DNA of 24,885 nt from Gammaproteobacteria bacterium (lineage in GTDB: Bacteria; Pseudomonadota; Gammaproteobacteria; Chromatiales; Chromatiaceae), in contig JAUXGQ010000001.1 in assembly GCA_030621975.1 (NCBI GenBank), forward strand, positions 1-24,885, in the 5' to 3' direction. Positions 2,045 to 13,907 of this stretch are shown in pieces (position 1 is the stretch's first letter; the number at the start of each line of letters is the position of its first letter). A model generated the notes under the pieces. The model searched no databases. It saw only the letters and a program-made list of their open reading frames with translations, and had not been told where the DNA came from. A program made the translations under genes and the position numbers.

Positions 2045-3358
2045 ATGAACACCCAACCGATTGAAAACCTGGATCCCGACTACAAGGTAGCCGACATCGG
2101 CCTGGCGGACTGGGGCCGCAAGGAAATTGCCATCGCTGAAACCGAAATGCCCGGCCTGATGGCATTGCGAGAGGAGTACAGCGACGAAAAGCCGTTGGCG
2201 GGCGCTCGCATCGCAGGTTGTCTGCATATGACGATCCAAACCGCCGTCCTGATCGAAACCCTGACCGCCCTGGGTGCGGAGGTTCGCTGGTCGTCGTGCA
2301 ACATCTTCTCCACCCAGGATCACGCCGCCGCCGGTGTAGCCGCGGCCGGTGTCCCGGTTTTTGCCTGGAAGGGCGAGACGGAGGAGGAGTTCTGGTGGTG
2401 TATAGACCAGACCATCTTCGGACCGGGGGGCTGGCGCCCGAATCTGATCCTGGACGACGGGGGCGACCTGACCCAGGTGATGCATGAGAAGTATCCGGAA
2501 CTGATGACTGAGGTACGGGGACTCTCCGAGGAGACCACTACCGGGGTGCACCGCCTGTACGAGATGATGAGTAACGGCGAATTGATGGTCCCCGCCATCA
2601 ACGTCAACGACTCGGTAACCAAATCCAAGTTCGACAACCTGTACGGCTGTCGCGAATCCCTGGTGGATGGCATCAAACGCGCGACCGACGTGATGATCGC
2701 CGGCAAGATCACCGTCGTGCTGGGCTACGGCGATGTGGGCAAAGGCTGCGCGCAGGCGCTGCGCGGCCTGGGCGCGGTGGTCTGGGTCACGGAAATCGAT
2801 CCCATCTGCGCCTTGCAGGCGGCCATGGAAGGTTTTCGTGTGGTAACCATGGAGGACGCCATGGATCAAGGGGATATCTTCGTCACCGCAACGGGCAACT
2901 ATAAAGTGATCACCCACGAACACCTGCAGGCGATGAAGAACCAGGCCGTGGTCTGCAACATCGGGCACTTCGATAACGAAATCGACGTGGCAGGCCTGCG
3001 CGACTACCAATGGGAGAACATCAAACCCCAGGTAGACCATGTTATCTTCCCCGATGGCAAGCGTATAATCCTGCTCGCAGAGGGTCGGCTGGTAAACCTT
3101 GGCTGTGCCACGGGACATCCCAGCTTCGTCATGTCCAACTTCTTCACCAATCAGACCCTGGCGCAAATCGAACTCTGGAGCAATCCAGACAGGTATGAGA
3201 AGGAGGTCTACGTGCTGCCCAAGCACCTGGATGAAAAAGTGGCGCGCCTGCATCTCAGGAAGATCGGCGCGCAGTTGACGACCCTGACCCCGGAGCAGGC
3301 CGACTACATCGGCGTCAGCGCGGATGGGCCCTACAAACCCGAGTATTACCGCTATTGA
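2045..3358 (+). CDS. ahcY: Adenosylhomocysteinase (SAH hydrolase)
   Basis: Motifs [66 protein letters not shown]-terminal KPEYYRY. Start moved from 1994 to the in-frame ATG at 2045, which follows AGGA. Confidence 0.98.
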
Positions 3359-3395
3359 CGGGGCTCTCCGGGATACACCCGTCTTCAGCGCCGCC

Positions 3396-4265
3396 ATGCA
3401 CTCACAGAAGAACTTTCCGCGAACGTTCAGCTTCGAACTCTTCCCTCCGAAGACCGACGCCGGTATGGAGAAGCTGCAGCACAACGTACGGAAACTCGCC
3501 ACCCTGAATCCTACTTATTTCTCCGTGACCTATGGCGCCGGCGGCTCTACCCAGGAGCGGACCTTTTCCACCGTTGGCTGGTTGCGCAGCCTGGGCTTAG
3601 CCACCGCGCCACATCTCTCCTGCATTGGGGCTACCAGGGACACCATTCGGGAGATACTCGCCCATTACCAGAACCAGGGCATCGACCGTATCGTGGCGCT
3701 GCGCGGCGACATGCCCTCTGGCATGGGCGAGCCGGGTGATTTTCGCTACGCCAACGAACTGGTGGCGTTTATCCGCGAGGAAACCGGCGACCATTTTCAT
3801 ATCGAAGTCGCCGCTTATCCCGAGGTCCATCCCCAGGCAGCCAGCGCCGAGGCGGACCTTCGCAACTTCAAGCGCAAGGTAGACAGCGGTGCAAACGCCG
3901 CCATCACCCAGTATTTCTACAACCCGGATGCCTATTTTCGGTTCGTCGAGAACTGCGAAAAGCTCGGCATGGACGTCCCCATCGTTCCCGGCATCATGCC
4001 CATCGGCAACTATACCCAACTGGCGCGTTTCTCCGACGCCTGCGGGGCCGAGATCCCGCGCTGGTTGCGCAAGCGACTAGAGGGCTTTGGGGATGACCTG
4101 GACCAGATCCGCGCCTTCGGTATAGAGGTGGTAAGCGCGCTATGCCAGCGGCTGCTCGAACAGGGCGCACCGGGCCTGCACTTCTATACCATGAACCAGG
4201 CCGGGCTGACGCAGGCGATATGGCGAAACCTGGGGTTGCCGACCGGCCCAGAGAATCCGTCCTGA
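3396..4265 (+). CDS. metF: 5,10-methylenetetrahydrofolate reductase
   Basis: SFELFPPKT, SVTYGAGGST, APHLSC, VALRGD, AAYPEVHP, ITQYFY, LHFYTMN. Start moved to the in-frame ATG at 3396 to remove the overlap with ahcY. Confidence 0.98.
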   Translation: MHSQKNFPRTFSFELFPPKTDAGMEKLQHNVRKLATLNPTYFSVTYGAGGSTQERTFSTVGWLRSLGLATAPHLSCIGATRDTIREILAHYQNQGIDRIVALRGDMPSGMGEPGDFRYANELVAFIREETGDHFHIEVAAYPEVHPQAASAEADLRNFKRKVDSGANAAITQYFYNPDAYFRFVENCEKLGMDVPIVPGIMPIGNYTQLARFSDACGAEIPRWLRKRLEGFGDDLDQIRAFGIEVVSALCQRLLEQGAPGLHFYTMNQAGLTQAIWRNLGLPTGPENPS

Positions 4266-4283
4266 TCCCAGCTCCGATTACTC

Positions 4284-4418
4284 ACCGCAGAGGACGCAGA
4301 GCTTTTGGAATTCATGGGCTTATGAGACGGACTTGGGCCGGGAGTACTTACGCTTCGCACCGAGAAATATACAGAGCCGCATAAGCTAGCCTGTTACTCT
4401 CTCTGCGTCCTCTGCGGT
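4284..4418. repeat. 135-bp element bounded by perfect 18-bp inverted repeats (MITE-like / non-autonomous palindromic element)
   Basis: ACCGCAGAGGACGCAGAG (4284-4301) and CTCTGCGTCCTCTGCGGT (4401-4418) are exact reverse complements. A nested 7-bp inverted repeat GCTTATG/CATAAGC lies at 4318-4324 and 4380-4386. Confidence 0.85.
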
Positions 4419-4482
4419 TAATTTTGTCTAACTCCTGCCGCATCGATACCCATGACCTGGAGCCCCACAGCTAGCTCACAGT

Positions 4483-5217
4483 ATGCGTCTTCCCAGAATC
4501 TACACGCCCCAGCCACTGGCAGAGCGGACTCGAATCCAATTGGATGCGCGCGCGGCCCGTCATGTGAGCCGCGTGTTACGGTTGCGGGCCGGTGCGTCCC
4601 TGAAACTTTTTAACGGAGACGGCAGGGAATACGGCGCACTTATCCTCGCCACTGGCAAGAGCGACGTAGAGATCGAGACCCTGGAAGCATCCGGCTCCGA
4701 TCCAGTGCCCGAGCCCCGCTTCACCCTGATTCAAGGCATCGCCAAGGGCGATCGTATGGACTACGCCCTGCAAAAAGCGGTGGAACTGGGGGCACATCGG
4801 CTCATCCCGGCCTTGACCGAGCACAGCGTGGTCAAACTGGAGAAGGACCGGCTCGCCCAGCGCATGGAACACTGGCGGGGGATCCTGATCAGCGCCAGCG
4901 AACAGTGCGGTCGTCGTTACCTCCCGGAACTCGAGGCGGTCGCGGAATTGAACTCGATACTCACCCGGCTGCCCGAAGGGTCTCTGAAACTGGTTCTCGA
5001 CCATCGAGCCGATCTTGCCCTGCCCAGCCTCTCCCGACCCAAAGGCGAGGTGGTCATACTAACCGGCCCCGAGGGCGGACTCAGCACCGAGGAACTGGAT
5101 CTGGTCAGGGACAGCGGCTTCACACCCGTACGCCTCGGCCCCCGGGTAATGCGCACCGAGACGGCTCCGCTGGCCGCCCTGGCCGCTTTGCAGACACTGT
5201 GGGGTGATTTTCGCTGA
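4483..5217 (+). CDS. rsmE: 16S rRNA m3U1498 methyltransferase
   Basis: MRLPRIY N-terminus, HVSRVLRL, QKAVELG, SASEQCGR, GPEGG, LGPRVMRTETA (SPOUT RsmE motifs). Confidence 0.97.
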   Translation: MRLPRIYTPQPLAERTRIQLDARAARHVSRVLRLRAGASLKLFNGDGREYGALILATGKSDVEIETLEASGSDPVPEPRFTLIQGIAKGDRMDYALQKAVELGAHRLIPALTEHSVVKLEKDRLAQRMEHWRGILISASEQCGRRYLPELEAVAELNSILTRLPEGSLKLVLDHRADLALPSLSRPKGEVVILTGPEGGLSTEELDLVRDSGFTPVRLGPRVMRTETAPLAALAALQTLWGDFR

Positions 5218-5265
5218 CCCGACGTCCGGGCTCGGAACCGGGGGTTTAACCTGTCTTCATTAATA

Positions 5266-5404
5266 GACAGGATTTACAGGATCTCTTTGGATTCTGAACC
5301 TTGTGTATGGCAAAGGCGCACCCAATACTCCTGTCCCGAAAATCTACGTCCGGAAGGCATATTTCAACATCCCGTCAATCCTGTGAAATCCTGTTGATCC
5401 TGTC
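5266..5404. repeat. 139-bp element bounded by imperfect inverted repeats built from tandem ACAGGAT/ATCCTGT units
   Basis: Left arm GACAGGATTTACAGGAT (5266-5282). The right end has four tandem units (ATCCCGT, then three ATCCTGT) at 5369, 5378, 5388 and 5397. The terminal 17 nt match the left arm at 15/17. Confidence 0.8.
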
Positions 5405-5437
5405 CATTCTTCTGAGGCGTAGATCTCATATATGCGC

Positions 5438-5460
5438 GTGGGCACAAAAAGCGTGCCCAC
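5438..5460. repeat. REP-like hairpin GTGGGCAC-AAAAAGC-GTGCCCAC
   Basis: Perfect 8-bp stem with a 7-nt loop, followed by CCTTCTAC (GTAG on the minus strand), in a convergent intergenic region. Confidence 0.7.
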
Positions 5461-5480
5461 CCTTCTACCAGGCTGATGTA

Positions 5481-5499
5481 ACCACGGATGGACACGGAT
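5481..5499 (+). repeat. Solo repeat arm ACCACGGAT-GG-ACACGGAT
   Basis: Two CACGGAT units at a 10-nt period. Same design and same ACC start as the 4284 arm. I found no partner arm in the window. Confidence 0.55.
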
Positions 5500-5517
5500 T
5501 AACTATCTGAGGATACA

Positions 5518-5594
5518 GTAAGACTGGGGCTCGCCCCAGCAGATCGGCTCGCGAGCAGGCGATGCAAACAAAGCTGGGGCAAGCCCCAGCCTAC
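5518..5594. repeat. Inverted REP doublet (REPIN-like) of GTAG-GCTGGGGC-TT-GCCCCAGC
   Basis: Plus-strand degenerate copy GTAAGACTGGGGCTCGCCCCAGC (5518-5540) and minus-strand intact copy GTAGGCTGGGGCTTGCCCCAGC (5594-5573), 32 nt apart. Confidence 0.75.
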
Positions 5595-6076
5595 CCCGCC
5601 TTGTCAGACGTCAGAGCGAGGGACTCGATTATGGTTTCTTCCAATGCATCCAGATCCGGGATGATCGCTTCCTGGCCCGCGACATAGACCTGGCGCAATA
5701 TCAGGGGGCTGGCTTCACTGACCACAAGATTGGGGGAGATGCTGGCGGGGATTAACCCTATCAGACGGGGAATGGCCTTGGCGACCACACCGATGTAAGG
5801 CAGCCCGCGGGGATCCTCGCCCAGGGTGTTACACACCACGATGCGGGCACGCGCCCCCGGCGGCGCCGTCGGAACGTTCAGGGCCCGCTCGAAGGACACT
5901 AGCGGAAACTTCCGCCCGTGCCACTGAATCTCGCCCAACAGCCAGTCCGGGGTCTGCGGGTAGGGGGCGGGTTCGCGAAATCCGATCACTTCGGCAATCG
6001 TGACATTCGGCAGCAGCAGTTTGTAACCATCCAGCGGGATCAGCACACCACGGATGTCGGCCTCTGCTACAGTCAT
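5591..6076 (-). CDS. chpC: CheW-like adaptor of the Pil-Chp system
   Basis: IRGVLIPL...LLLPNVTIAEVI...WLLGEIQW...LVSFE...IPDLDALE is the ChpC-type CheW pattern. ATGA overlap with the chpA stop. Confidence 0.88.
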   Translation of the reverse strand: MTVAEADIRGVLIPLDGYKLLLPNVTIAEVIGFREPAPYPQTPDWLLGEIQWHGRKFPLVSFERALNVPTAPPGARARIVVCNTLGEDPRGLPYIGVVAKAIPRLIGLIPASISPNLVVSEASPLILRQVYVAGQEAIIPDLDALEETIIESLALTSDKAG

Positions 6077-9000
6077 GCCTGCGCCTCAGCCAGAAGCGAA
6101 TAGATGTTTTCCAGCAACTCCATTTCCTGATAAGGCTTACCCAGATAGCCTTTAACACCCAACTCCATGGCCAGCTTGCGGTGTTTCTCACCGGTCCTGG
6201 AGGTGATCATTATGATCGGGATGTCTTTCAGATCCGAAGAAGCCTGCATGTGTCGCGCCAGTTCAAAGCCGTCCATGCGCGGCATCTCGATATCCAGCAA
6301 CATCAGATCCGGCGCATGTTCCTGCAGCAATGCCACGGCGTCCACTCCGTCCTTGGCGGTTGTAACCTGAAAGTTATGCCGCTCCAGCAGACGCCCGGTA
6401 ACCTTGCGAACAGTGATCGAATCGTCCACCACCATTACTTTCACGGGCGCGGCATCAGCGGAAATGCCCATCTCGGTGCCCGCGGGCGCCAAGGGTTTTG
6501 CGGCATCCATGCGCACCATCGCATTCACGTCCAGAATCAAAGCAACCCGGCCGTCCCCGAGAATCGTCCCTCCGGTTATCCAGCGTACGGTACTCAACTG
6601 CGGGCCCACGGATTTCACTACGATCTGCCGGTTGCCCAGCAGTCCGTCTACTTGCACCGCCACGCGTCGATCACCCGACCTCACCAGCAGCATGGGAAAC
6701 CATTTCTTCCCCTCCGATAAGGCGATGGGGCCTACCCCGAGCATACTGCCCAGATAGCGTACCAGATAGGTATGCCCGGCGTATTCGAAACCCTCCTGCC
6801 GACCCTCGTAGCATTCCTGCAGTTCGTCCCGACTGACCCGCACTACGCCTTCGATACTGGTATGCGGAACCGCGTAGATGTCCTCTTCCATCTTCACCAG
6901 CAGGGCTTCACTGATGGCCAGCGTCAGGGGCAAACGTATTACGAAGCTGGAGCCGGTGCCGTGCTCGGATTTGATCTCGAGGGACCCACCGAGTTGTTTG
7001 ACCTCGCTGACCACCACATCCATGCCCACGCCACGCCCGGCGATCTGAGACACCTTGTCCGCGGTGCTGAAACCCGGTTCCAGAATGAACTGCATGACGT
7101 CGTTGTCCGCAACGTTCGCGCCTTCCTCCAGCAGGCCTTTTGCTATGGCCTGCTTGCGGATATTTTCCAGCTTCAGTCCCTGACCGTCGTCGCAGACAAC
7201 CAACACCACGTCCGTGCCCTCACGGGACAGATCCAGCGTAATCCTGCCCTTGGCTTTCTTGCCCTGCCCGCGACGCTTTTCCGGCGTTTCTATACCGTGG
7301 GAAACCGCATTGCGCAGAATATGCTCCAGCGGTGCAACCATACGTTCCAGGATGCTGCGATCAACCTCTACGGCGGCGCCGTTGACCGTGAGTTCGGCCT
7401 GCTTGTGCACGGAATCGCAGGTCTGACGCACCAACCGCTGCAGCCTGGAGACGATCTGGGTAAAGGGCACCATACGGGTGCGCAGCAATCCGTCCTGGAG
7501 GTCCGTGGATACTCGGGCCTGCTGCATCAGCAGCGTTTCCGTTTCCCGATGCAGGTCCTCGGTCAGGTCCTTGATGCTGATCAGGTCGTTATCGGTCTCC
7601 ATAAGACTGCGGGAGACCTGCTGCATGGTGGAGAAACGGTCCATTTCCAGGGGATCGAATACATCTTCGCTACCCCCCGTTTCTTCCTTCTCCCGCTCGT
7701 AACGAAACAGGATCTGAGCCTCGGTCTCCATTTCCAGCTGACGCAACTGCTGGCGCAGCCGTGCCACCGTCTGCTCCAGCTCCGAAAGGTTGAATCCGAT
7801 GGCGCTGTTCTGTTGTTCAAGGCGTGCCCGGTATATGCTCACCTCACCGGCGTTGTTGACCAGCCGATCCAGCACATCCGAGCGCACGCGCACCTGCTCG
7901 TGTTTCGGGGCCGGCTTCGTTTCCGCAGACGTTGCCTTGGCGCCCGGTTTCTGTGGGGCCAGCGGTTCTACAATCCGCTCTACGGTCCCGGCTGTGGAGG
8001 CTTTGTCCTCCGGCGCCGGTTGTTCCTGTAATTCCGGTGCTGTATCCCGTCCCGCATCCGCGCCGAACAGATTAACCACTTCCGCGGACTCGGTCACGGG
8101 GGGCGGCTGGCTCTCGGGTTCAACCCGTACTAAAAAAAACGGTTCCGTGTCCGCCGCTGCCGGCGCGTCCTCCCCGGCTGGCGCGCGCGCCTCCGATTCG
8201 GCATCTTCGGTGCCCGTCGGCTGTTCCACACCGGTTGCTTCCGCGGGCCCTTGGTCGAGAGCTGACTCAACCGCTTTTTCGGCCTCGTCCCCGAGCCCTG
8301 CGCCGGGCGCGGGTTGAACCTCACCCGCAAGCAGCAGCTCCAGCTGCGTGATCAAATCCTGAGCTTCGTGTACCCGACCGGATTCGCTGACCTCATCGAC
8401 CTGGGACGACAACCTGTCCGCAACCTGTTGCGCGAGTTGCTGAACCGCGTCCGTGGTGACGACCTGACCGCTGGTGATCCCGGTCAGAAGCGATTCAAAG
8501 GTGTGGCCCAGATCACCCACCGGGGTGATTCCCGCCAGCCGGGCTCCGCCTTTGAGCGTGTGCAGCGTTCGCTGTAATTCCGCTAGCGGCGTATTGTCCT
8601 GAGGGGCCTGGCGCCAGGCAGCCAGCGAGGTATCCAGGCTGTCGAGTAATTCACGGGCCTCTTCCAGAAATATCTCGACCAGTTCCTCTTCCGAACCGAC
8701 CTCGACGAATGCGGCCTCTTGCGCAGCCTTCTCGGAGGGTGGGCTCCTGTCCTGCGCCAGTTCCACCTCTTCATCCAGCGCCGGAATGGATACCGTCTCG
8801 CTTTCTGCCTCGTTCCTTATTGCCTCTTGGCTTTCCGACTCATCCTGAGGCGGCCCCGCCTGAATGACCGGCGAAATCTCCGTCGGCGACAAGGGTTCTG
8901 CCGGGGTAACCGGTGGCGCCGAAAGCCTCTCTTCCCGCAAGGCATCGATCCGGGCGACAAGCTCCTCCGAGTCGGGAAACTTGACCCCCGATACATTGAT

Positions 9001-11858: not shown

Positions 11859-13907
11859 CTATTCCGGTATCCTGAAACCAGCTACGGTGCTCTGCAGGTC
11901 ATCCGCGAGCGCCGCCAGTTTTCCGATCGCCGAGGCGGTCTGGTTGGTGCCGTCGGACGTCTGGGTGGTGATCTCCTGAATGACGCCCATGGTGTCGTCG
12001 ACCCGGACGGCTTCCAGGGATTGCTTGCGTGCGGATGACGCGATCTTTCCGGTAAGGTCAGCGATATAATTGGAAACGTTCTCGATTTCCCTCAGCGCCT
12101 CGCCGGCGTCCTCCGCAAGTTTGGCCCCACTGACCACGCCTGTGGTGCTGGACTCCATGGAACTGATCGCCCCACTGGTGTCGGCCTGAATAGTCTGCAC
12201 CAGGGCCTCGATCTGTTTAGTGGCGTTGCTCGAGCGTTCGGCCAGTCGCTGCACCTCGTCGGCCACTACCGCGAAGCCCCGGCCCGACTCGCCGGCCATG
12301 GCTGCCTGCATGGCCGCATTCAGCGCCAGGATATTGGTCTGATCGGCAATGTCGTCGATCAGCTCGACGATGTTTCCGATCTCCTGGGAACTTTCTCCCA
12401 AGCGCTTGATACGCTTGGAAGTTTCCTGAATCTGCTCACGAATTACGTCCATACCCTGAATGGTATTGCGTACCGTCGCCGCACCATTGCTCGCGATCTC
12501 CACGGATCTTTGAGCCACTTCGGCGGACTCGATTGCGTCACTGGACATCTCGTCGATGGCCTGGGTCATCTCCTTGATCGCACTGCTCGCCATGGTGATC
12601 TGTTCAGCCTGCAACTCGCTTGCCTCGGCCAGATGCATGGCTGTAGCCCGGGTTTCCTGGGTCGATGCGGCCACCTTCTCGGAAGTGTCGTTGATGGTCA
12701 CCACCAGATTTCTGAGCTGCTCGATCGCATAGTTGATGGAGTCCGCGATGGCGCCGGTGATATCCTCGGTTACGGTTGCCGTCACCGTAAGATCACCGTC
12801 CGCGAGATCCCCCATTTCATCGAGCAGGCGTAAGATAGCGGTCTGGTTTCGTTCGTTATGCTCCTTGACGCCGGTTTCGCGCCGCAAGGCTTCGATCAGC
12901 AACTGCACTCCCAGCATCACCAGAAAGAAAACCGCGAGGGCGCCCAGTATGGCTATCAGAACAGGACCCGCCTCGACAATGCCGAGGCTGAAACGACCCG
13001 GTGACTCTCCGTACGCATCGATCAGTTGCCGGGAGGCATCATTCAGGGTGTCGCTGACCAGCGATATGTCATTCGCCGCATGCAACGCCGGCAGTACGTC
13101 AGGTGCCGCAGCCAGGATTTTTTCGATATTGGCGTTGATCGAATTGAACAGCGTGGATGCCGTGCGGAGTTTCTGCACCGCGGCCCTTTCCGTTACCGCC
13201 GGGACGTTGAGCTTCGCCTCACCGCGCAACAGACCCTTCAATACCCGGGCAAAGCGTTCCCGGTCACGGCTGACGCGGTCGATGGCAGCAGCCGTTACCT
13301 GTCCACCTTCCAGAACCCGCCCCACGTTGTTTTCAATGCGCTGGGCCAACATGAGCTGCCTCGTCGCAAGATAGATCTGCTCACGAGACGCTTTACTGCC
13401 CACCAACGCCCTGACCAGCCCGTCAATCTGCTCCTCAAGCTTCGGAACCAGGCTGGTTACTTCGTCGATCAGTCTTCTGACCGTTAAGACGGGTTTCCTG
13501 TTGTTCAGGATCTTGTCCGCGCCCTGGCGCATCTCCCGCCAGCTATCCTCAACCCGCCTCAGATCCGCTGCAACCTCTTCGGGGGACGACGGTAGACCAA
13601 TGCGCTTTTCGCCATCTTTCAACTCCCCCATGATCTTTCCAAACCCGTCCCTTGACGCACCCAGCCTGTCAAAGGCGGCATCGTCACCTTCTGCCGCGGC
13701 CAGGGCCTCCTTGACGATGCGCTGGGAAATGATCTGCTGCTCTTTCGCCCTCAGGAGATACTGCTCGTCATGGTCATCCCACCGCGCAACATGTACAAAA
13801 GTCACCACCGCAAGGACGATGGTTATCAGCAGCAGCGCCGCCAACACCACGATACCCTTGTTGGTCGTAAACCTTCCTCTCGCGCCTTTCCTGGAAAATG
13901 CATTCAT
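11859..13907 (-). CDS. pilJ: Methyl-accepting chemotaxis protein of the Pil-Chp system
   Basis: Two hydrophobic transmembrane segments, a PilJ-type periplasmic region, HAMP-like LLDEMGDLADGDLT, and signalling hairpin QTNILALNAAMQAAMAGESGRGFAVVADEV. Start set at ATG 13907, with GGAG 8 nt upstream. Confidence 0.96.
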   Translation of the reverse strand: MNAFSRKGARGRFTTNKGIVVLAALLLITIVLAVVTFVHVARWDDHDEQYLLRAKEQQIISQRIVKEALAAAEGDDAAFDRLGASRDGFGKIMGELKDGEKRIGLPSSPEEVAADLRRVEDSWREMRQGADKILNNRKPVLTVRRLIDEVTSLVPKLEEQIDGLVRALVGSKASREQIYLATRQLMLAQRIENNVGRVLEGGQVTAAAIDRVSRDRERFARVLKGLLRGEAKLNVPAVTERAAVQKLRTASTLFNSINANIEKILAAAPDVLPALHAANDISLVSDTLNDASRQLIDAYGESPGRFSLGIVEAGPVLIAILGALAVFFLVMLGVQLLIEALRRETGVKEHNERNQTAILRLLDEMGDLADGDLTVTATVTEDITGAIADSINYAIEQLRNLVVTINDTSEKVAASTQETRATAMHLAEASELQAEQITMASSAIKEMTQAIDEMSSDAIESAEVAQRSVEIASNGAATVRNTIQGMDVIREQIQETSKRIKRLGESSQEIGNIVELIDDIADQTNILALNAAMQAAMAGESGRGFAVVADEVQRLAERSSNATKQIEALVQTIQADTSGAISSMESSTTGVVSGAKLAEDAGEALREIENVSNYIADLTGKIASSARKQSLEAVRVDDTMGVIQEITTQTSDGTNQTASAIGKLAALADDLQSTVAGFRIPE

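Follow-up and report, generated by a model that had tools for sequence, protein, structure and literature searches.

Heptamer-array hairpins of a sediment gammaproteobacterium as gene-less derivatives of GxxExxY nuclease cassettes

The closest published case in organisation to the elements considered here is that of Ssn, a GIY-YIG nuclease of small size encoded between copies of the NTS/SRM hairpin, a motif that the enzyme cuts on single-stranded DNA, that is present in hundreds of copies per genome and that shows a genome-level association with Ssn (PMC11893778). Repetitive extragenic palindromes (REP) and their RAYT genes are an older parallel. Rows of a 7-base word are known as well, and heptamer repeats of the STRR type occur in cyanobacteria. 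TAACTGA heptamer repeats have been reported from Beggiatoaceae, cyanobacteria and Bacteroidetes (PMC4679880). The present work deals with three elements, E1 to E3, in a stretch of 24,885 nucleotides (the window) of contig JAUXGQ010000001.1, which comes from an uncultured gammaproteobacterium of cold-seep and marine sediments. All three elements are built of arms of short, purine-rich heptamers, and they are very probably gene-less derivatives of small cassettes that carry a gene of the GxxExxY family, PF13366, which a 2012 superfamily survey recorded as being of unknown function and with many transfers. A literature search found no published description or definition of repeats associated with GxxExxY genes, and the four arm sequences gave nothing in it but chance matches in papers on connexins.

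E1 (4284-4418) starts 18 nt past the metF stop codon and has 18-nt arms that are 100% complementary, E2 (5262-5411) carries two units in its left arm versus four in its right, and E3 is a solo arm for which no inverted partner was found before the adjoining REP-like doublet. No open reading frame (ORF) lies inside E1 or E2, and the remaining 23 kb of the window hold no further arms (Table 1). The original prediction, made from the bare sequence of the window, had described these arms correctly: their sequences and periods, the inverted pairs of E1 and E2, the solitary state of E3 and the end motif TAACCRC (TAACCGC as the reverse complement of 4414-4420, TAACCAC at 5479-5485) are all present. 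Its proposal that the three share one grammar also agrees with the content of the genome (G000; C-numbers designate contigs, G-numbers compared genomes and L-numbers fetched loci), where the arms form one dispersed family. The assembly, of 2.67 Mb in 536 contigs and 69% complete, contains 367 exact doublets of eight heptamer families, which dominate all exact 7-mer doublets of the genome: ACAGGAT (114), CACAGAG (74), CACGGAT (70) and CGCAGAG (60), followed by CGCAAAG, CACGGAG, CACGAAG and CACGGAA. CACGGAT-N3-CACGGAT occurs 70 times versus none for its backwards control, and three-unit CRCRRAK arrays 140 times versus four for the backwards-read pattern, frequencies well beyond chance. Spacers of 1-3 nt give periods of 8-10 nt, mostly 9-10, and the outer end, placed directly before the first unit, reads T(T/A)(A/C)ACC genome-wide and TAGAC in the ACAGGAT type. 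Convergent neighbours are of the same family in 62 cases versus two of mixed family, with inner distances that peak at about 46, 86 and 106 nt. Although open frames of 150 aa or more make up 88% of the genome, only 27.5% of the doublets fall within them. Arm clusters number 251, of which 49 are within 150 nt of a contig end, so that their true number is probably higher and the arm repeats probably explain much of the break-up of the assembly. Long tandem arrays also exist, such as those of about 11 CACAGAT-AAA units with a 10-nt period in G054 (C11:232589-232695, C21:144377-144463) and one of six CACAGAG units in G000 (C155:5189).

Gene-less forms have been amplified in this genome. The interior of E1 is 67-76% identical to those of about 10 other CGCAGAG elements, in matches that span the full length of E1, and E2 is 73-81% identical to about 25 genome copies across some 145 nt. 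A further repeat of about 170 nt is present in seven gene-less copies, 93-99% identical and with unrelated flanks (C189, C296, C199, C372, C441, C365, C176). In this composite repeat, a CGCAAAG arm pair sits within an outer inverted repeat, AGTGTCCRTCC, that resembles the inward portion of a CACGGAT-type arm, which indicates that arm families nest or fuse. A search for paralogous empty sites within the genome found none; matching flanks always enclosed a further copy, which shows that certain arm pairs are themselves part of longer repeats.

The gene that E1 and E2 lack can be traced in their sister copies. A search of G000 with the TIGR04256 (GxxExxY) profile recovered broken pieces only, beside or between arms (Table 1), and no intact gene in the assembled part of the genome. 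With a profile made from 25 intact proteins, N- or C-terminal GxxExxY fragments were detected beside an arm in seven clusters (E<=1e-3), whereas the reversed control gave none. Both ends of E2 match, at the level of nucleotide homology, the longer copy on C15 (3646-3918) that keeps a C-terminal GxxExxY fragment. Gene-bearing forms are found in relatives. G002, from another genus of the family, has two intact GxxExxY genes, and each lies between arms: CGCAGAG arms for the first, which is located between gph and rpe, and CACGAAT arms for the second. Of the 28 intact genes examined, which come from G002 and a 300-genome sample of the phylum, inward arms were found on both sides of 18, on one side of 8 and on neither side of 2, versus one on both sides and two on one side in the wrong-orientation control. 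The absence of a gene from E1 and E2, the fragments in sister copies and the intact genes in relatives thus identify the window copies as gene-less derivatives: E1 and E2 keep the inverted arms of a cassette with no GxxExxY gene between them, and E3 keeps a single arm. The association of such arms with GxxExxY genes elsewhere, as initially put forward, therefore holds for 26 of 28 intact genes, and the seven clusters with fragments, together with the gene-bearing forms of relatives, uphold the idea of empty cassettes. On the other hand, the filler of about 100 nt had been taken for unrelated sequence, but it is conserved within families, as in the case of E2, and derived from the ends of the lost gene.

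In several gene-bearing loci the arms intrude on the gene or are duplicated. The GxxExxY open frame often crosses the arms (L069:856-1287, L014:1011-1418, L038:1450-1860), whose translation would give tails such as NPVNPVNPV-stop or SPQSTQS. In two loci (L042 and L012) the gene is followed by one more arm in direct orientation, the order being arm, gene, arm, filler and inverted arm.

A full cassette is a small chromosomal element with one nuclease gene of about 125 residues between two inverted arms, each made of 2-4 purine-rich heptamers (CRCRRAK or ACAGGAT) with a period of 8-10 nt, the purine strand facing inward and an outer T(T/A)(A/C)ACC end. E1 and E2 have lost the gene by internal deletion, keeping the arms and scraps of the gene ends, and relate to the parent cassette as a miniature inverted-repeat transposable element (MITE) or a REPIN does to its parent. 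E3 is a single arm left beside the REP-like doublet. Like MITEs, the window elements are short, gene-less, multi-copy and intergenic, with terminal inverted repeats and an interior made of the two ends of a gene-bearing parent. Unlike MITEs, they show no visible target-site duplication in the two families aligned, their ends are arrays of short units and their parent encodes a 125-residue nuclease and no known transposase. The approximately 250 shells of G000 would be either orphans or dependent on a trans-acting gene located in the third of the genome that is missing from the assembly. The lack of an intact GxxExxY gene in the assembly and the presence of five to six Y1_Tnp genes could instead point to arrays recognised by some transposase or recombinase, of the HUH type or other, whose gene lies elsewhere. 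However, arms are absent from the 4 kb around each of the five clear Y1_Tnp genes, and no other gene family recurs between or beside the arms in the loci examined, which leaves this explanation highly improbable. Neither the suggestion of nearby HUH genes nor that of a cassette protein encoded elsewhere is supported; only the GxxExxY nuclease of the cassette itself shows a consistent link with the arms.

Arms and gene also go together at the level of genomes. Among 299 genomes of the phylum, with arm-rich genomes defined by at least 10 three-unit arrays and gene presence by E<=1e-10, 35 have arms and gene, 13 arms only, 15 the gene only and 236 neither, an odds ratio of 42 that is overstated by kinship among the genomes and by the dominance of one family (f46). 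The resemblance with Ssn and its NTS repeats is one of organisation, the activity of the cassette being a prediction: a small nuclease gene is framed by its own repeat, hundreds of gene-less copies occupy intergenic regions, the repeat load is tied to the presence of the gene, and related repeat variants accompany related genes. The two systems differ in the fold, which is PD-(D/E)XK here and not GIY-YIG, and in the repeat, which here has two inverted arms, each a row of 2-4 spaced heptamers, around 40-110 nt or a gene, and is not one short hairpin. Such a likeness raises the alternative of a host-serving nuclease-plus-motif system of the same kind, where the nuclease would recognise the folded arms on single-stranded DNA and modulate uptake, recombination or repair, the arms dispersed over the chromosome being its working sites and not copies of a selfish element. 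The pattern matches that published for Ssn, in which the gene of a small nuclease lies between copies of its own hairpin, gene-less copies run into the hundreds and the association at genome level is strong (PMC11893778). The cassettes would fit this alternative in being chromosomal as well (the gene was found in none of 50,697 phage records and in 8 of 72,556 plasmid records, mostly very large replicons), and in that some are kept at one locus across genera. However, 140-160 arrays persist in G000 and G278 although neither has an intact gene, the many coexisting heptamer families would demand many specificities, and at orthologous sites the gene is seen to degenerate in situ, which speaks against its being under strong selection, so that we consider a host-serving role unlikely.

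In the case of REP and REPIN sequences with their RAYT genes, the similarities are those of dispersed extragenic palindromes, often found as inverted doublets, with a cognate gene flanked by the repeat, several families per genome and a chromosomal, largely vertical inheritance. Unlike them, the arms have no HUH gene tied to them, and they are made of iterated heptamers, palindromic only when paired, and not of an imperfect palindrome of 20-40 nt with a conserved 5' tetranucleotide. G000 holds a separate REP-like family, distinct from the arms, at 5521-5592. This doublet comprises two CTGGGGC-N3-GCCCCAG hairpins, of which there are 156 in the genome, and their copies often adjoin CACGGAT arms (C514, C491, C368). 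The contigs with the five clear Y1_Tnp genes have no such hairpin.

The cassette gene encodes a protein of about 125 residues (TIGR04256/PF13366, the latter its sole match) with a PD-(D/E)XK assignment. In an alignment of 31 proteins, E27 (within the GxxExxY motif), D67 and K79 are invariant and E77 nearly so, which corresponds to the PD-(D/E)XK catalytic set. An AlphaFold model with a pLDDT of 94.6 has as structural neighbours only PD-(D/E)XK nuclease domains, those of a type IIG restriction enzyme, Cas4, CinB, HsdR, lambda exonuclease, Hjc and I-Bth0305I. These fold matches are generic, with Z at most 7.8 and TM at most 0.53; as no single one is prominent, no specific enzyme class can be named, and a sequence search of the Protein Data Bank with the protein gave no match. 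Judging from the conserved residues and the model, the GxxExxY protein looks like an active nuclease. Arms ending in GAT pair with one protein clade and those ending in GAG with another, a single contrast that is expected from co-inheritance.

A comparison of the two arms of each element suggests what is read in them. When the left arm is set against the reverse complement of the right one, the heptamers are 95% identical versus 54% for the spacers, a value no better than the 67% between elements of the same family, and the two ends of an element are of two different conserved types (in the CACGGAT family, spacers GGA and TTA at one end versus GAA and AGA at the other). Conservation thus affects the units and not the stem as such, which points to a factor reading each heptamer at sites about one helical turn apart. 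Moreover, in G222, a genome with 353 arrays, an orthologous cassette (L042, 1455-2040) has CGCAAAG in every unit where seven other species have CGCAGAG (Table 1), so that the units of a cassette change in concert. These patterns in the arm sequences favour protein recognition over a plain hairpin. The nuclease of the cassette would then bind the heptamers as an oligomer, each heptamer being one site in a row along the same face of the helix, and the action of this nuclease at the arms would make or spread the copies.

An explanation at the RNA level would place the elements beside REP and the bacterial interspersed mosaic elements (BIME), or beside the intervening sequences of 23S rRNA, as transcribed arms that would pair into a long imperfect stem, either cut by RNase III or able to protect, end or separate transcripts. 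Upstream purine units could further act as Shine-Dalgarno-like sites, maskable by the pyrimidine-rich downstream arm. E1 and E2 are indeed predicted to fold as long hairpins on either strand (z from -2.6 to -5.3, with -4.8 and -5.3 for E1), and they sit in spacers of co-directional or convergent genes. The units hold GGAG, AGGA or GAGG, which are Shine-Dalgarno-like, and the upstream arm abuts, overlaps or contains the likely start codon in several cassettes. The genome G054 fits as well, since its armed hairpins at two sites (L207 (G054:C11) 6280-6370 and 13040-13125, compared with L210-L217) begin immediately behind the stop codon and end shortly ahead of the next ribosome site, in the place of a longer, mutually conserved and stem-loop-rich spacer kept by four sister species. 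The intervening sequences of 23S rRNA that bear an ORF (four-helix-bundle/S23p, PF05635) are comparable in having a small ORF within pairable inverted ends; unlike them, the window elements are located in spacers of mRNA genes (metF, rsmE and one similar to cheW) and not in rRNA. An Rfam scan of positions 3500-6500 gave a single chance match, to a miRNA family, at 5517-5600. But a stem alone needs no repeated identical units, the non-complementary spacers break the helix every 7 bp, and the concerted change of all units would be left unexplained, so that a role confined to RNA seems less likely still than the host-serving one. Recognition of the individual heptamers by the GxxExxY nuclease remains the reading that we prefer.

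Comparisons between relatives indicate how the elements arrive and are inherited. Three syntenic genera of the family have metF-rsmE spacers of 12, 16 and 61 nt, versus 217 nt in G000, a difference of 156-205 nt from which it follows that E1 is an insertion. In g99, a genus of family f46 that includes genomes with 90-350 arrays, one orthologous spacer occurs in five states by species, being empty in three species, occupied by a full CGCAGAT cassette in two, by a CGCAGAT cassette with a truncated gene in three and by a gene-less CGCAGAG element in one. The presence/absence polymorphism expected by the original prediction thus exists between relatives, in both of these spacers, but it did not extend to strains: neither movement nor polymorphism was seen in the contigs of four public runs or in two metagenome scans. 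No contig of those runs skipped a whole element over 3600-6400 to give an excision joint; joints such as 4301>4401 and 5298>5364 were rejected, their sides being of only 20-30 nt and derived from other copies. The two scans contained no empty E1 or E2 site (flank, gap of 0-30 nt, flank), the organism being perhaps absent there. That the arms and genes form a mobile cassette system, as was first proposed, we infer.

Several observations weigh against arms that are read and spread by the nuclease. The gene is not detected at the above threshold in thirteen of the 48 arm-rich genomes, including one that has 162 arrays, and G000 itself has its 140 arrays yet GxxExxY fragments only, which means that arms persist, and perhaps multiply, without the gene. 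As arms and gene would be co-inherited under any model, their association is no proof of recognition, and binding or cutting of the arms by the nuclease is, as biochemistry goes, a candidate activity. One cassette is an old resident, found at a single locus across several genera with 67-78% nucleotide identity, and the hairpins of G054 replace the whole ancestral spacer instead of forming a clean insertion. No target-site duplication is visible in the alignments of two families (family A and that of E2), and, among the four public runs, from four studies, E1 and E2 are unchanged in the contigs of two studies. The identity of E1 to E3 as derivatives of GxxExxY cassettes is hardly in doubt, recognition of the arms by the nuclease and the proposed mode of spread are plausible though somewhat short of probable, and both parts blended into one account, gene-less cassette derivatives whose arms are read by the nuclease, make a moderately probable explanation. 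A bolder possibility is that GxxExxY cassettes, spread over many phyla, make up a new class of minimal selfish elements, in which a single PD-(D/E)XK nuclease of about 125 residues, seated as an oligomer on the helically phased heptamers of both ends, would be the sole element-encoded function needed to copy or move, and the gene-less hairpins, about 250 here, its non-autonomous offspring. Extrusion of the inverted arms as a cruciform, followed by its resolution, would be a conceivable route, and we regard this as a tentative idea, doubtful for now.

The distribution of the arms reaches beyond the phylum. ACAGGAT arms with the TAGAC end enclose intact GxxExxY genes in two metagenome-assembled genomes (MAGs), one of Chthoniobacterales and one of Victivallales, and among the matches listed in a 17-mer scan of contigs there are at least about 35 gene-less convergent ACAGGAT pairs, in records of Verrucomicrobiota, Acidobacteriota, Chloroflexota, Bacteroidota, Planctomycetota, Thermodesulfobacteriota and Proteobacteria. 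Because the count of that scan, at least 120 matches versus some 70 expected by chance, is not significant alone, its evidence lies in the roughly 35 convergent partners and the two enclosed genes.

Four-helix-bundle genes, also thought at first to lie between such arms, turned out to be framed instead by contiguous heptamer arrays with a period of 7. The two TIGR02436 genes of G000, one intact (C335:2248-2556) and one broken (on C240), have arrays of CAGTTGT, CAGTTAT and CCCACTG in the regions C335:2150-2650 and C240:6240-6550, and most of the 24 full-length loci examined, of 30 fetched (L177-L206), show inverted contiguous rows, such as GGCAGTA versus TACTGCC, of up to a dozen units. This frame is a related design idea with a different grammar. 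The known TAACTGA and STRR repeats resemble the GxxExxY arms as intergenic arrays of a 7-base word with a patchy spread across phyla, but they are contiguous direct repeats of period 7, whereas the arms have units spaced by 1-3 nt and set in two inverted rows. Among the arrays of four-helix-bundle (Avd/S23p-like) genes is TCAGTTA, which is TAACTGA read on the other strand. This gene family goes unmentioned in the study of the TAACTGA repeats (PMC4679880), and these repeats may be the arms of a sister cassette with such a gene.

E1 to E3 sit in the spacers among metF, rsmE and a convergent cheW-like gene, and the nearest named records compared, with genes about 70-72% identical, are MAGs of Candidatus Muproteobacteria and Sedimenticola. 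Two other classes of repeat were considered for these elements and rejected. An integron attC site has RYYYAAC (R'') and GTTRRRY (R') core sites at the ends of its imperfect palindrome, but the right end of E1, GTTAATT, has a T at the third R position of GTTRRRY, and the elements are dispersed, with no array by an integrase. As to a CRISPR array, they have 7-nt units with spacers of 1-3 nt, in inverted pairs of 2-4 units, versus direct repeats of 24-48 nt with unique spacers about as long.

Table 1. Coordinates of the window elements, the neighbouring genes, the GxxExxY remnants of G000 and the orthologous CGCAGAG loci.
Feature	Position	Strand	Remarks
E1 left arm	4284..4301	+	ACC and two CGCAGAG units (4286, 4295), 9-nt period
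E1 interior	4302..4400		99 nt, without gene
E1 right arm	4401..4418	-	two CTCTGCG units (4401, 4410) and GGT, then TAA
E2 left arm	5262..5293	+	TAGACAGGAT end and two ACAGGAT units (5267, 5276)
E2 interior	5294..5368		common to about 25 genome copies
E2 right arm	5369..5411	-	ATCCTGT at 5378, 5388 and 5397; degenerate ATCCCGT at 5369; conserved outer CCATTC
E3 solo arm	5479..5503	+	TAACC end and two CACGGAT units (5483, 5493), 10-nt period
metF	3324-4265		PF02219
rsmE	4483-5217		PF04452 and PUA domain
cheW-like gene	5591-6076	-	convergent
GxxExxY C-terminal piece	C15:3646-3918		between four-plus-four ACAGGAT units
GxxExxY N-terminal piece	C256:7696		with GLLESAYE motif, directly after CACAGAG arm
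GxxExxY C-terminal pieces	C30, C134		before arms
GxxExxY 5'-truncated gene	C311		between CACAAAA arms
Seven CGCAGAG orthologous loci	L014, L025, L026, L021, L034, L029, L038		

A last question is what these elements mean for the GxxExxY proteins and for the genomes that harbour them. PF13366/GxxExxY is a large family of unknown function, and the frame of arms found around its genes explains a sizeable share of the intergenic repeats of G000. If the nuclease recognises the rows of heptamers, it would be a second and structurally unrelated case of the principle represented by Ssn, that of small nucleases with programmable short recognition words, and the many natural heptamer variants would provide a series of specificities already at hand. 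Should the elements be mobile, few known autonomous mobile units would be as small, and if they are selfish elements, a sister four-helix-bundle system would explain the TAACTGA and STRR repeats. Either way, the arms merit annotation as one named repeat class, and not as unexplained palindromes.

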